From Pueribacillus theae (GTDB taxonomy: Bacteria; Bacillota; Bacilli; Bacillales; UBA6769): a DNA stretch of 64,000 nt. The notes under the pieces were generated by a model. It did not search any database and was not told the DNA's origin. It worked only from the letters and a program-made list of their open reading frames with translations. Positions within the stretch are counted from its first letter, which is position 1, and each line of letters starts with the position of its first letter. This document shows positions 42-45,004 of this stretch, piece after piece. The stretch covers positions 16,016-80,015 of the forward strand of contig NZ_QCZG01000013.1 of NCBI RefSeq assembly GCF_003097615.1. Direction: 5' to 3'. The translations under genes were made by a program, and so were the position numbers.

Positions 42-301
42 ATGACCTCCTTTTTTAAAAGTTAAAGTTAAATTGGCAATTCGCCAATTTAAACCAATCC
101 TACCTATCACCTCCAAGAAAGACGCATCAGCGTTTTCTTAATAATAAGGTATACTTTCGAAGCTTGTTCAATTACTAAAATTGTCAAAAAATCGTTGGAA
201 TTCTACTTGTTTTCAAGTATAGCCTACTGTTTAAAAAAATGTCAAAGACAAACTTTATCCCCCATCATTGAAAATAAGACCCCACTTATTGGAGTCTCTC
301 T

Positions 302-1448: not shown

Positions 1449-1588
1449 TTTATGCCCACTCCTTTCTCTATATATCCTTTTAAAAAATAACTTAATTTGC
1501 ACCTGCGTCTACCAGTTTAGCTCCGAAGCAGGATTTCTCGGCGCAGGGCAACAAAGATGTATTTCTTTGTAATCGCCTTGCTCTTTCG

Positions 1589-1643
1589 CAAATTTAGGCC
1601 AATCTGGCTTCTGGCCTCCTAAGAAAACGCGTTAGCGTTTTTC
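1589..1643 (+). repeat. copy 1 of a dispersed intergenic repeat, core CGCAAATTTAGGCCAATCTGGCTTCTGGCC ... ACGCGTTAGCG
   Basis: Near-identical sequence at 44367..44420 (same strand) and 31171..31223 (opposite strand). Lies in the yunD-yunC intergenic region. Confidence 0.6.
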
Positions 1644-1657
1644 TTATATATATGTCA

Positions 1658-23146: not shown

Positions 23147-24778
23147 TTAATTGTTAACACGAACGGAATCAACCCGGTCCCCTCTGCGAGAGAAAATAAC
23201 TCCCTCACCAGTATTCAGGTGTTGAACTAGAAATCTCTCTACTGGTTTCTCCGACGCTGTTTTAGGAATTTCAGCAAGTACTTGAAAGTAATCGGGATGA
23301 GGGCCTTGACCGATAACCTCGCTAACCTTAGATAGAAAGTCATCGATAACTAGTTTTCTCTTTTCATTCAACACGATAGCGGCAATCACCGTTTTTTCAC
23401 CTGGAGAGTTGCTGTCTAAGGCTACACCGTAGACATACACATCGTTAATGTCGGGATGTTTGGCCAACGCTGTCATCATGTCCTCGACAATAATGAATTC
23501 GCCGTTTCTTCTGACAGCACTGCCACCACGATAGGAGAAGTATACCCAGCCTTCTTCATCTTTGTAGCCGCAGTCTCCGCTTCGAAACCAATTCCCCTTG
23601 GTTTTCTTTTTCGATGCCTCGGGATCCTTAAAGTAGTTGACTGGGTCTGCTTTACCATCGGCATTCCTGAAGCAGATCTCACCGATATCAAAAGGTGCAC
23701 AAGGTTGATCGTGTCTATCAAGAATTTCGCACTGGATACCAGCGGGCGGTTTACCAATGGATCCTACCGGACCAACTCCGGGCGGATTGAAAGTCATCCC
23801 GCCTTCTGCAGTTCCGTAAAATTCAAATATCTTGACGTTGAAACGCCTTTCGAACTCTTCCCACATAGCCGCCGGCATGCCAGCGCTTAAAACAAAACGA
23901 ACATTATGCTGGCGTTCAGAAGGACTTTCCGGCTCGGAGAAAAGCGCTGTCGCCATGCCACCGAGCAAATTGAAAGTGGTGCATCCGTAGTGTGCGACGA
24001 TGTCCCAGAGCCGGCTTTTCGTGAATGTTCGACTAATCACAAGAGGCAGACCCAAAGTAAGGGAATACCCTAAGCTAATAAGTTGAGCATTGGCGTGGGT
24101 TAGAGACAGACCAGTGTAGGGACGGTCCTCTGGTGTCAATCCGAGAAGCGTATGCAACGCGCCCACGCTGGCGAATCGATGGTAATTGGATTGAATGGCT
24201 TTAGGATCGCCAGTGGTGCCAGAAGTAAACAGCATTTGCATAGTATCGCTTAACGGTCTAGGCTTAGCTGGGCTCGGCAATTCTTTTTCCTTGTCAATAG
24301 ATTGAAAAATATGATTTAAGGATGCAACGTAAGGGGTAGAGCAGTAATCGTTATCACTGTCTATCACCCAAGCCCACTCTAGGGGCTCTGGCCATGCCTT
24401 AAGTGCATGAATTTTACCAAGACCTTCTTCAGATACTAGCGCTCCGCGACAATCGGTGTGCAGCACCATAAACGCCAGACGTTCGGGTTGCACCCTAACA
24501 TCGATAGGCACAAAAACTGTCCCCAATATTTCCGATGCTAGCATAGCTTCAACGAACTCTGGATGGTTTCTCATCACCAAAGCAAAACGATCGCCTTCCC
24601 TCAAGCCTACATTTGCTAGTGCAGAAGCCAACATCAAACCATTGTTTAACAATTGTTCAGCGGTACGATTTTCTTCCACGAATGTGTCGTCTTCGATTGA
24701 CACGAAGGTCAGTAATAACTTGTTGGGCTCCTTTTTCGCCCAATGTTGAACGGCTCCCAAAGGAGTAAACATATTCAT
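23147..24778 (-). CDS. AMP-dependent acyl-CoA synthetase/ligase
   Basis: 543 aa with AMP-binding motifs (TSGTTGDPK, YGTAEGG, GDCGY). The start ATG lies inside copy A of the tandem duplication, with AAGGTGA 7 nt upstream. Confidence 0.8.
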   Translation of the reverse strand: MNMFTPLGAVQHWAKKEPNKLLLTFVSIEDDTFVEENRTAEQLLNNGLMLASALANVGLREGDRFALVMRNHPEFVEAMLASEILGTVFVPIDVRVQPERLAFMVLHTDCRGALVSEEGLGKIHALKAWPEPLEWAWVIDSDNDYCSTPYVASLNHIFQSIDKEKELPSPAKPRPLSDTMQMLFTSGTTGDPKAIQSNYHRFASVGALHTLLGLTPEDRPYTGLSLTHANAQLISLGYSLTLGLPLVISRTFTKSRLWDIVAHYGCTTFNLLGGMATALFSEPESPSERQHNVRFVLSAGMPAAMWEEFERRFNVKIFEFYGTAEGGMTFNPPGVGPVGSIGKPPAGIQCEILDRHDQPCAPFDIGEICFRNADGKADPVNYFKDPEASKKKTKGNWFRSGDCGYKDEEGWVYFSYRGGSAVRRNGEFIIVEDMMTALAKHPDINDVYVYGVALDSNSPGEKTVIAAIVLNEKRKLVIDDFLSKVSEVIGQGPHPDYFQVLAEIPKTASEKPVERFLVQHLNTGEGVIFSRRGDRVDSVRVNN

Positions 24779-24880
24779 GATAAAATCACCTTGACTACGA
24801 TGGCAGCGGCATCATTATCAAGCCAGTTGCCACCGTTTTCCACTAAGACGCTCTTGGCGCCTTCCGTTTTATTTTTCATA
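24650..24880. repeat. copy A of a diverged ~250-bp tandem duplication spanning the thiolase-stop/synthetase-start junction
   Basis: Aligns base-for-base (roughly 80% by eye) with 24903..25133. Both copies carry an ATGA stop/start overlap (24775-24778 and 25027-25030). Confidence 0.7.
24775..24879 (-). pseudogene. decayed duplicate of the thiolase 3' end (MKNKTEGAKSVLVENGGNWLDNDAAAIVVKVILS*)
   Basis: Homologous to the C-terminus of the intact thiolase (...VEGAKVALAENGGGWLGNDAAAIVITVLSS). It lies in copy A, and its stop overlaps the synthetase ATG. Confidence 0.6.
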
Positions 24881-24902: not shown

Positions 24903-25133
24903 GTTGACATTAATGCAACCAATTCTGTCCGCCAATGTGTCGCCTTCGAGTAACACGAAGGTTATCAGTAATCTGTTAGGATTCTTTTCCGTCAAATATT
25001 GGACTGCCCCAAAGGAGAAAATATACTCATGATGAAAGCACTGTGATTACGATGGCAGCGGCATCATTACCAAGCCAACCACCGCCATTTTCCGCTAAGG
25101 CAACCTTGGCACCTTCTACTTGACGGGCACCGG
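24903..25133. repeat. copy B of the tandem duplication
   Basis: Contains the real thiolase 3' end plus a decayed synthetase 5' fragment. Confidence 0.7.
24992..25030 (-). pseudogene. decayed duplicate of the synthetase 5' end (MSIFSPLGQSNI*)
   Basis: Homologous to the real N-terminus MNMFTPLGAVQHW. Interrupted by a stop after 12 codons. Its ATG overlaps the thiolase TGA (ATGA). Confidence 0.55.
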
Positions 25134-27603: not shown

Positions 27604-27700
27604 AGCACAGGACATAAAGAACCTGTGCTGTAAAGTAAGGTAACAAGGAACTGTCACGTTACAGTATGTGACACTGTAACAAGTTGTAACGTGACACTTT
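27604..27700 (-). promoter_or_regulatory. enhancer (UAS) region with three inverted-repeat sites
   Basis: The sites are AGCACAGG-N10-CCTGTGCT (27604-27629), TGTCACGTTACA (27652-27663) and its reverse complement TGTAACGTGACA (27685-27696). They have the TGT-N-ACA architecture of bacterial enhancer-binding protein sites, at about -40 to -140 from the sigma-54 promoter. Confidence 0.6.
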
Positions 27701-31170: not shown

Positions 31171-31223
31171 CCACGGTACAACCGTCCGTAAGAAGTCAGA
31201 GGCCAGATTGGTCTAAATTTGCG
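31171..31223 (-). repeat. copy 3 of the dispersed intergenic repeat (reverse orientation)
   Basis: The reverse complement reads CGCAAATTTAGACCAATCTGGCCTCTGACTTCTTACGG. Lies between the floT terminator and the 76-aa gene. Confidence 0.6.
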
Positions 31224-31248
31224 ACAAAGCAAATTTATACATATTTTT

Positions 31249-31277
31249 TAAAAAGGCAACCCATTAAGAGTTGCCTT
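31249..31277 (-). terminator. floT terminator (AAGGCAAC/GTTGCCTT stem, T-run on minus strand)
   Basis: 8-bp stem. The reverse complement gives hairpin plus TTTTTAAAAAAT. Confidence 0.55.
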
Positions 31278-35444: not shown

Positions 35445-35570
35445 CCCAAACAAAAAAGCCCGAGAGATATCTAATATCGATATCCTCCCGGGCTTTTATC
35501 CCTCCGTGTACACAGGTAAACCGTGCGTTTTCTCTCGGACCAGTCCAGGCAAAGCTGCGGAACCCTAGAA
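35445..35570 (-). ncRNA. guanidine-I riboswitch (ykkC-ykkD leader) with intrinsic terminator
   Basis: The minus strand reads UCUAGGGUUCCG...CUGGACUGGUCCGAGAGAAAACGCACGG...ACACGGAGGGAUAAAAGCCCGGGAGG, matching the conserved guanidine-I aptamer blocks. A terminator follows at 35452-35497 (GCCCGGGAGG..CUCUCGGGCUUUUUU). An extended -10 (TGcTATAAT) sits at 35584-35592. Confidence 0.85.
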
Positions 35571-35584
35571 AACAATTATTTCTA

Positions 35585-44310: not shown

Positions 44311-44366
44311 CGATCATTCATCCCCTTATCGCTTCTTAAAAAATAAGAAAATATAAATTTGCTTTT

Positions 44367-44420
44367 CGTAAATTTAGACCAATCCTGGCTTCTGAACTCT
44401 GAACAAGGACGCGTTAGCGT
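44367..44420 (+). repeat. copy 2 of the dispersed intergenic repeat
   Basis: Reads CGTAAATTTAGACCAATCCTGGCTTCTGAAC...ACGCGTTAGCGTC. About 60-110 nt upstream of the CtaG-like start. Confidence 0.6.
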
Positions 44421-45004
44421 CATTGTTCCATTTGGTAGCCTTTGTCCGTGACATAATCTTCAATGCTCCAGATGCCTTTCTTCTTTTTCTTTGCTTCTTT
44501 TTCGATCTTTAGATAGTCATCGAGATGCCTTTTATCATTGTAAACGTAAGCCACTCTTGCAAGTCCTTCCTCCAGCAATACTTCCTGCAAACTGACGCCA
44601 TCAACATACAAATAGCCTAACAGCCTGCCGTACTTGTCTCTTTCTTGAATGCCGAGTTCGATTTCAACTTTGCCGTCTTTAAGCAGTTCTTCCACTTTTT
44701 CCTTCGCTTCGACTGCATACGGCTGAGGGCCGTCAAATTGTTTATGGCGCATTTCCGGTGTATCGATTAATAAAAATCGGATATTTTCTTCTTTTCCTTC
44801 ATAATTAATTTTGATCGTGTCTCCGTCAATGACTTTTACAACGTCTGCAAGAATGCGTTCTTGGCTGATCTCATGCGTGCTTCCACTCTGTTCCGCCGGT
44901 TCAAGCAGTTCGTTGACATCAATCCCGTAGTATGCCCCAATTCCGATGACAAATACTGCCAGCAGAGTAGGCAACAATGTTTTCTTTGTTTTCTTTTTCT
45001 TCAA
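44420..45004 (-). CDS. thermonuclease-family (SNase-like) secreted/membrane-anchored nuclease (YncB-like)
   Basis: 194 aa with a Lys-rich N-terminus plus TM segment. SNase-domain motifs (VIDGDTIK, RFLLIDTPE, YGRLLGYLY). Confidence 0.75.
   Translation of the reverse strand: MKKKKTKKTLLPTLLAVFVIGIGAYYGIDVNELLEPAEQSGSTHEISQERILADVVKVIDGDTIKINYEGKEENIRFLLIDTPEMRHKQFDGPQPYAVEAKEKVEELLKDGKVEIELGIQERDKYGRLLGYLYVDGVSLQEVLLEEGLARVAYVYNDKRHLDDYLKIEKEAKKKKKGIWSIEDYVTDKGYQMEQ

Follow-up and report, generated by a model that had tools for sequence, protein, structure and literature searches.

The 64-kb window analyzed here (the whole stretch of Pueribacillus theae DNA under study) contains four copies of a short sequence block, each located between two co-oriented genes of the minus strand: a gene for an SNF-type transporter and yunB (copy 4), yunC and yunD (copy 1), a gene for a 76-aa protein and the flotillin gene (copy 2), and a gene for a Caa3_CtaG-like protein and a thermonuclease gene (copy 3). 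The YunC protein encoded in the window is 100% identical to that of P. theae. The flanking genes of the copies are functionally unrelated. Pfam searches back the identities assigned to these genes in the first-pass annotation, namely, YunB, 5′-nucleotidase (yunD), flotillin, Caa3_CtaG-like protein and thermonuclease, and the location between co-oriented minus-strand genes, described there for three copies, holds for all four; the 76-aa protein matches no family in Pfam.

The recurrence of a nearly identical core in three intergenic sites, from which the analysis started, is real. The core, AAATTTAGRCCAATC(C)TGGCYTCTG, has exact matches at 1590-1613 (+), 31197-31220 (-) and 44370-44394 (+), that is, three in the 64-kb window against none expected by chance; no match to this 24-25 nt pattern was produced by 100 dinucleotide-preserving shuffles. 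In a repeat search of the window, the copies were the top inverted-repeat pairs (I1 and I8), and no other comparable dispersed repeat was detected. A three-way alignment extends the similarity about 20 nt upstream of the core, to (TA)TAAATTTGCTTT, and, for two of the copies, downstream as far as ACGCGTTAGCG; the flanks beyond are unrelated. The two copies that share ACGCGTTAGCG are 1 (at 1627) and 3 (at 44409), rather than 1 and 2 as originally reported, and the inverted copy is copy 2 (31171-31223), as the title of the first-pass annotation had it, and not copy 3, as its text did. An nhmmer profile built from the copies recovered exactly one additional, diverged copy in the window (copy 4; E = 6.5e-7). 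With a refined profile made from eight versions of the element (E-values 1e-16 to 1e-19), copy 4 was retrieved with E = 1e-16, and exactly four copies, and nothing else, were found in the window.

The window also contains two direct copies of a 109-nt sequence (24756-24864 and 25008-25116; 81% identity, 252 nt apart) that are unrelated to the element. An inverted repeat with 25-nt arms, a 1-nt gap and 80% complementarity (AACTGTCACGTTACAGTATGTGACA / TGTAACAAGTTGTAACGTGACACTT) that could be an operator or a hairpin is located at 27649-27699.

Modular organization of the element

Aligned in the orientation of the core, the different versions define the element as a discrete block of 60-100 bp that consists of five modules. 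Module A is an A-run, AAAA(A/G), that always directly follows a T-run of the host sequence. Module B is an AT-rich hairpin, TAAATTTGC-N5-6-GCAAATTTA, followed by the core, RCCAATC(C)TGG (module C), and by 2-5 tandem heptads CYTCTGR, the number of which is polymorphic (module D). Module E is an optional terminator-like hairpin, AAGAAA(G)ACGC-N4-GCGTTTTTCTTA, that ends in TTTTTCTTA; in such long forms, the right boundary of the element is the end of the T-tract that follows this hairpin (TTTTTCTT). The core itself includes a 1-bp indel between copies (CCAATCTGG versus CCAATCCTGG), and the spacers vary as well. The heptad tract (1604-1624, 31189-31205 and 44387-44403 in the window) is a variable-number tandem repeat that differs between P. 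theae and a sister lineage (660-710 in contig L015 and 3610-3650 in contig L026).

Copy 1 is interrupted. Its left part, at 1482-1500 (+), comprises the A-run and the left arm of hairpin B (TTAATTTGC), and is cut off from the rest by a nested insertion of 81 bp at 1501-1581 (+), with the direct repeat TTGC at 1497-1500 and 1578-1581. The 81-bp block is unique in the window and, as shown by alignment, is missing from the sister-lineage contigs L015, L018 and L019; it holds hairpins of its own (CCTGCG...CGCAGG and GCTCCGAAGCAGGATTTCTCGGCGC). The main part of the copy, at 1582-1646 (+), encompasses the right arm of hairpin B (GCAAATTT), the core (GGCCAATCTGG), the heptads CTTCTGG and CCTCCTA, and the 3′ hairpin AAGAAAACGC-GTTA-GCGTTTTTCTTA, which scored as terminator-like at 1623-1642 (+). 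The copy begins 12 nt past the stop codon of yunD (1658-1660), on the opposite strand. The fold TTAGGCCA...TGGCCTcCTAA that had been proposed for this copy is indeed found there; it is not kept in the other copies.

Copy 2, at 31189-31249 (-), is a short form of 60 bp without the 3′ hairpin, consisting of AAAAAATATG, the hairpin TAAATTTGC-TTTGTC-GCAAATTTA, the core GACCAATCTGG and the heptads CCTCTGA and CTTCTTA. The T-tail of the terminator-like hairpin of the flotillin gene directly precedes this copy, which lies upstream of the gene for the 76-aa protein. The bases at 31171-31188 (ACGGACGGTTGTACCGT), previously included in this copy, are found as well in a sister strain in which the site is empty (see below) and hence belong to the flank, outside the element.

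Copy 3, at 44338-44421 (+), consists of the A-run, the hairpin TAAATTTGC-TTTTC-GTAAATTTA with one G.T pair, the core GACCAATCCTGG, the heptads CTTCTGA and ACTCTGA, and the 3′ hairpin GGACGC-GTTA-GCGTC. This hairpin abuts the stop codon of the thermonuclease gene (44420-44422) and overlaps with it; the copy is upstream of the CtaG-like gene. The C-terminus of the thermonuclease encoded next to this copy is of the same length as those of its homologues.

Copy 4, at 57-140 (+) (54-139 in the profile match), is a diverged long form that was identified by the profile match and is new compared with the first-pass annotation. It includes an A-run, the hairpin TTAAATTGGC-AATTC-GCCAATTTAA, the core CCAATCC, the degenerate heptads CTATCA and CCTCCAA, and the 3′ hairpin AAGAAAGACGC-ATCA-GCGTTTTCTTA, and is located between yunB (302-1108, -) and the start, at about 45, of the minus-strand gene for the SNF-family transporter. 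In the same spacer, just downstream of the terminator-like hairpin of yunB (298-276), there is a near-consensus sigma-A-type promoter at 245-216 (-), TTGACA-18-TATACT, with 11 of 12 matches; a transcript from this promoter would cross copy 4 in antisense and run into the transporter gene.

Hairpin B, in which the pairs were read by eye (MAFFT displaced the arms of copies 3 and 4), is whole in most copies, with at least one mismatch in two versions; copy 4 has a double compensatory change (T-A to G-C), in addition to the G.T pair of copy 3. Hairpin E combines a stem that is kept with a loop that differs between versions (GTTA, ATCA, ACCG). Hairpins B and E are the only structures recovered in minimum-free-energy folds; with z-scores between -5 and +1 on either strand, no global structure is common to the copies. 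Consensus scans detected no sigma-70-type promoter in the copies or directly upstream of them. At the gathering threshold, Rfam produced no match to the element in the window, and at E<=10, over the copies, it yielded noise only (LPR69 at 14.6 bits, compared with a cutoff of 40); the sole Rfam family match in the window is a Guanidine-I riboswitch (RF00442) at 35483-35579 (-), with 86.3 bits against a gathering threshold of 63. Reading frames across the copies are not conserved, being disrupted by 1-nt indels.

Filled and empty sites

The ends of the element were derived from two pairs of filled and empty sites. The first pair, in the spacer between the flotillin gene floT and the gene for the 76-aa protein, involves two short public contigs, L002 and L003, that encode the identical 76-aa protein. 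The window and L002 are filled, with the 60-bp block between GCCTTTTT and ACGGACGG; L003 is empty (GCCTTTTTACGGACGG, in the context ...GGGTTGCCTTTTTACGGACGG...), and the 60-bp block is missing exactly. No difference separates L002 from L003 in the 491 bp that follow, and the same 13 positions distinguish both of them from the window. Given that the window, although more distant than these two near-clonal contigs, has the element, the most parsimonious scenario is its precise loss in a near-clonal background.

The second pair comes from another genus. In Siminovitchia sp. 179-K, the element is found between the TRAP transporter genes dctP and dctQ, inside the operon. The filled sites of L001 and L013 contain a block of about 95 bp between GATTTTTTTA and AGAATG, and the empty counterpart, AATTTTTTTAAGAATG, comes from L027, which encodes a 99% identical DctQ. 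The two Siminovitchia versions (3374-3470 in L001 and 170-269 in L013) are one base apart in hairpin E (ACGCACCGCCGT versus ACGCACCGGCGT), and the full ACGC/GCGT stem is possible only in L013.

In both pairs, the insert lies directly 3′ of T5-7+A, after a hairpin, and ends in TTCTT(A); the left end of the element is AAAAA(A/G)... and the right end is ...TTCTTA. An imperfect direct repeat of 7-8 bp, TT(T/C)TTA, flanks the element in both pairs; a perfect target-site duplication comprises at most 3 bp (TTA) in the first pair and at most 1 bp (A) in the second one. The left junction of T-run and AAAA is present in the other copies as well, and the right end is ...(C/G)TTA, except in copy 3, where it is the thermonuclease stop codon. 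The element has no terminal inverted repeats: at best, in copy 2, 6 of 10 low-complexity terminal bases match (read by eye). Relative to the flanking genes, copy 2 and the Siminovitchia copy in L001 are in the sense orientation, and copies 1, 3 and 4 are antisense.

No transposase is encoded in the window or adjoining any of the copies, and a tblastn search with an IS200 TnpA query produced no match in the window or in the fetched loci. At 1-478 of L003 (a Logan SRR11914005 contig from the sister strain), the end of an open reading frame appears, by eye, to be transposase-like (WKIENEGFNHQKN...); the protein fragment had no convincing match in Pfam, NCBIfam or plasmid entries. The reading frame is followed by a non-coding IS end of about 195 bp; the insertion interrupts the flotillin terminator in its left arm and lies 22 bp away from the site where the element is missing. 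Derivation of the element from this IS is not supported: the two share an 11-mer, TCTAAATTTAC, along with a heptad, which is not significant against shuffles. In local alignments with the IS end, 60-292 of 1000 shuffles attained the score of the element for four of the five copies tested, and 5 of 1000 did so for the remaining copy, c1_L015.

Occurrence in relatives and in sequence databases

In the sister lineage (97% YunC identity), the element occupies the sites orthologous to those of copies 1, 3 and 4, and it has changed at each of them. At the site of copy 1, the sister lineage has an additional 16 nt of heptads (about two units), and the window has the 81-bp insertion that splits hairpin B. 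At the site of copy 3, the sister lineage (L026) has exactly one heptad more than the window. At the site of copy 4, the window harbors the diverged long form and the sister lineage has a near-consensus short form without modules D and E. The mismatch rate between the window and the sister lineage is higher in the element than in the flanks at two of the three sites, those of copy 1 (12/88 in the element, 5/82 in the flanks) and copy 4 (14/54 and 26/222, respectively); at the site of copy 3, there are 1/83 and 0/67 mismatches.

Beyond the sister lineage, the orthologous spacers yunD-yunC and downstream of yunB in relatives with 85-88% YunC identity (L022-L025 and L031/L032) contain no element; in one of these lineages, the yunD-yunC spacer is merely 59 bp long. 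A scan of about 185,000 species genomes with the strict core pattern produced a single match, in Siminovitchia sp. 179-K, and none in P. theae, the genome of which appears to be absent from the collection. Among the 11 loci from a metagenome scan, L013 alone is real and represents the same Siminovitchia locus; the other 10 match the short core only, with a far lower element-profile score, and appear to be chance matches. Searches of plasmids, phages and viral contigs with the element yielded no match. The first-pass annotation had proposed further copies and conservation in relatives as the means of telling a genuine repeat from fortuitous similarity; one more copy was found among the species genomes, and the copies are kept only in the very close sister lineage.

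Discussion

Taken together, these observations identify a new, previously undescribed family of small modular insertion repeats that is present in Pueribacillus and Siminovitchia. We hold with considerable confidence that the motif belongs to a discrete insertion-type repeat and is not a conserved regulatory site. The case rests on the exact boundaries, the presence/absence polymorphism, the absence from orthologous sites in relatives and the near-identical copy elsewhere in another genus, complemented by the occurrence in both orientations, the unrelated neighbors, the fast evolution by indels and the nested insertion. The element lands either way round at junctions of a T-run and A, twice directly after a terminator-like hairpin, and changes rapidly: heptads are gained and lost, modules D and E can drop out by internal deletion, and other sequence can be inserted within it. 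Because it has been inserted into, and once cleanly removed from, gaps between unrelated genes, it behaves as a mobile-type repeat rather than as a gene switch. The more specific interpretation, which on balance we favor and consider probable, is that the motif forms the core of an insertion element of the MITE/REP/BOX class, non-autonomous and lineage-restricted, with enzyme-mediated mobility. The presence of a single strict-core copy in the Siminovitchia genome is odd for an active family and counts against mobility.

Of the candidates listed in the first-pass annotation, the REP/MITE-like element is supported if the term is taken broadly, for a small insertion-type repeat with dispersed copies; it is not a MITE in the strict sense, given that there are no terminal inverted repeats. 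Among known systems, the BOX elements of Streptococcus pneumoniae reportedly consist of the modules boxA-boxB(n)-boxC (Martin et al. 1992; Croucher et al. 2011). The element resembles BOX in its modularity, with variable internal units between two end modules, in the capacity to form hairpins and in the intergenic location; it differs in the internal unit, 7 nt as opposed to about 45 nt, and in the host lineage, and no relationship between the sequences was recognized. The Bacillus cereus group is said to harbor the repeats bcr1-bcr18, of ~100-400 bp (Okstad et al. 2004; Tourasse et al. 2006), several of which reportedly have terminal inverted repeats and TA duplications, with some being MITE-like and transcribed. 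Like these, the element is a lineage-restricted dispersed intergenic repeat of Bacillaceae; by recognition alone, no sequence similarity was apparent.

Bacterial MITEs (reviewed in PMC10969869) share with the element the small size, the non-coding character, the intergenic location, the dispersed copies in either orientation and the presence/absence polymorphism: there are four short, dispersed, non-coding copies of 60-165 bp in the window and one in Siminovitchia. Another parallel is a MITE of Porphyromonas gingivalis that contains a minisatellite (PMC4596501); the element likewise has an internal tandem repeat with a strain-variable copy number. Unlike MITEs, the element lacks terminal inverted repeats, has a target duplication of at most 1-3 bp and is much smaller (60-100 bp), and no parent IS with matching ends was found.

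The non-autonomous elements known as PATEs, which derive from IS200/IS605 and are linked to single-strand "peel and paste" transposition (PMC5027513, PMC7290912, PMC4810608), are similar to the element in the lack of terminal inverted repeats, the essential lack of target duplication, the insertion 3′ of a short target (T5-7+A, with a T-run at every left junction), the hairpins near both ends of the long forms and the one apparently seamless loss. However, PATEs have similar left and right subterminal hairpins, whereas hairpins B and E (the latter with ACGC/GCGT and A/T extensions) are unrelated; furthermore, copy 2 and the sister form of copy 4 have no hairpin E, and tblastn with the IS200 TnpA query revealed no Y1 transposase in the available sequence. 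With REP/BIME, which are associated with RAYT (TnpAREP) transposases (PMC8266576, PMC3184786), the element has in common short extragenic palindromic units that often follow the 3′ end of a gene and can influence termination or the stability of mRNA. Yet REPs are G+C-rich palindromes with a GTAG-type 5′ tetranucleotide that occur in hundreds of copies, mostly in Proteobacteria; the palindrome of the element is AT-rich and there is no conserved GTAG in the aligned copies, so the element is not a REP.

As for the mechanism, an enzyme whose gene lies elsewhere in the genome would move the element in trans, or would have done so until recently, and would probably recognize the two hairpins. The heptads, which are similar to the TTCTTA motif at the terminus, might represent reiterated end or target-like sites. 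Effects on neighboring genes would be by-products rather than the purpose of the element, as in the case of hairpin E potentially acting as a bidirectional terminator after yunD and the nuclease gene, or of the insertion between dctP and dctQ.

Movement without a dedicated transposase is the alternative that survives best, and we consider it rather unlikely. Under this scenario, the element spreads and is lost by template switching or illegitimate recombination between T-runs located after hairpins. When a nascent strand stalls at the T-tract of a terminator, it would switch to another locus, copy the segment between the T-run there and the T-run that follows hairpin E, and then return; loss would occur by slippage between the flanking TT(T/C)TTA repeats, which could indeed provide a route to transposase-independent deletion or template switching. 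Several features fit this scenario: every copy begins right after a host T-run and the long forms end with a hairpin and TTTTTCTT; both resolved sites follow a hairpin and are flanked by imperfect T-rich direct repeats; neither a transposase nor terminal inverted repeats were found; and the number of heptads shifts in slippage-like steps. However, the microhomologies are imperfect and only 3-8 bp long, and the two independent events with exact boundaries are more typical of enzyme-mediated cleavage. Moreover, the presence of the same block, with a near-identical core, at unrelated loci in two genera requires horizontal transfer and ectopic insertion.

It is also unlikely that the long form encodes a small RNA, or that it serves as a mobile cassette (cis-acting RNA or terminator), with an action on near or distant genes. 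The parts for such a function can be named: a 5′ stem-loop, single-stranded C/U-rich heptads that could pair with the Shine-Dalgarno sequence (CCUCC), and a terminator formed by hairpin E and the U-tract. The 3′ module does look like an intrinsic terminator (hairpin E with TTTTTCTT, at 1623-1642 (+) in copy 1), the right boundary of the long forms coincides with the end of the T-tract, CCTCC is present in several heptads, and hairpin B is kept in most copies, including the double compensatory change in copy 4 and the G.T pair in copy 3. This conservation, however, equally fits recognition of single-stranded DNA. The sRNA family suggested in the first-pass annotation is further weakened by the failure to detect a sigma-70-type promoter in or directly upstream of the copies, an Rfam match even at E<=10, or a consistent global fold (z-scores from -5 to +1); in addition, the short forms lack the terminator, CCTCC is found in some copies only, and the element is not kept in relatives.

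A related and quite improbable variant is that the long form is the complete DNA copy of a small transcript that spreads by RNA-mediated or terminator-coupled copying rather than by classical transposition. The right boundary at the end of the terminator T-tract and the left one at the A-run would then be the ends of the copied molecule, and new copies would arise at T-tracts after other terminators. If so, the anti-Shine-Dalgarno-like heptads can rewire the expression of adjoining genes.

We regard it as very improbable that the core is a transcription-factor operator, possibly carried by a repeat, that defines a small regulon. Conservation of the core is very high over about 30 nt; module B, a 22-bp palindrome, has the typical shape of an operator, with inverted arms of 9 bp separated by 5-6 bp; and every copy is found in an intergenic region upstream of the start of a gene. 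However, the element is not found at the orthologous promoters: it is missing from the yun spacers of the relatives with 85-88% YunC identity (L022-L025, L031/L032) and likewise from L003, the near-identical strain, and from L027. In copy 1, the inverted repeat is split by the 81-bp insertion, the core includes the 1-bp indel and the spacers vary, and the flanking genes are unrelated, with the Siminovitchia copy residing inside an operon, dctP|dctQ. The operator consensus sequences of the Spo0A box, CodY, Zur, MntR and DtxR/IdeR showed only partial, copy-specific resemblances to the element. A riboswitch is disfavored as well.

Two other candidates were tried and rejected. A sigma-54 promoter was suggested by the reverse-strand sequence TGGCCTAAATTTGC, which resembles TGGCAC-N5-TTGC; the distance between GG and GC, however, falls short by 1 bp, and copy 3 has AC in place of GC. 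A small open reading frame was suggested by the shared peptide DWSKF; 1-nt indels break the frame on both sides of it. Finally, fortuitous similarity or a remnant of a local segmental duplication, for which the small copy number is the sole support, can practically be discarded, considering the 0 of 100 shuffles, the profile E-values of 1e-16 to 1e-19 and the unrelated flanks of the copies.

With respect to genome annotation, the strikingly conserved intergenic motif in the P. theae genome should not be taken for a regulon signal or a riboswitch. The long form brings along a bidirectional terminator-like hairpin, so that its insertion can split operons, as between dctP and dctQ, or supply terminators, as after yunD and the nuclease gene. 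Such insertions would be one way to rewire gene expression between very close strains. If the family is active, it would be among the smallest insertion elements of Bacillaceae with resolved boundaries, unusual in lacking terminal inverted repeats and in targeting the T-tails that follow terminator hairpins, and the 7-nt variable-number repeat could serve as a marker for strain typing. The family might also provide a small model for insertion targeted to terminator T-tracts.
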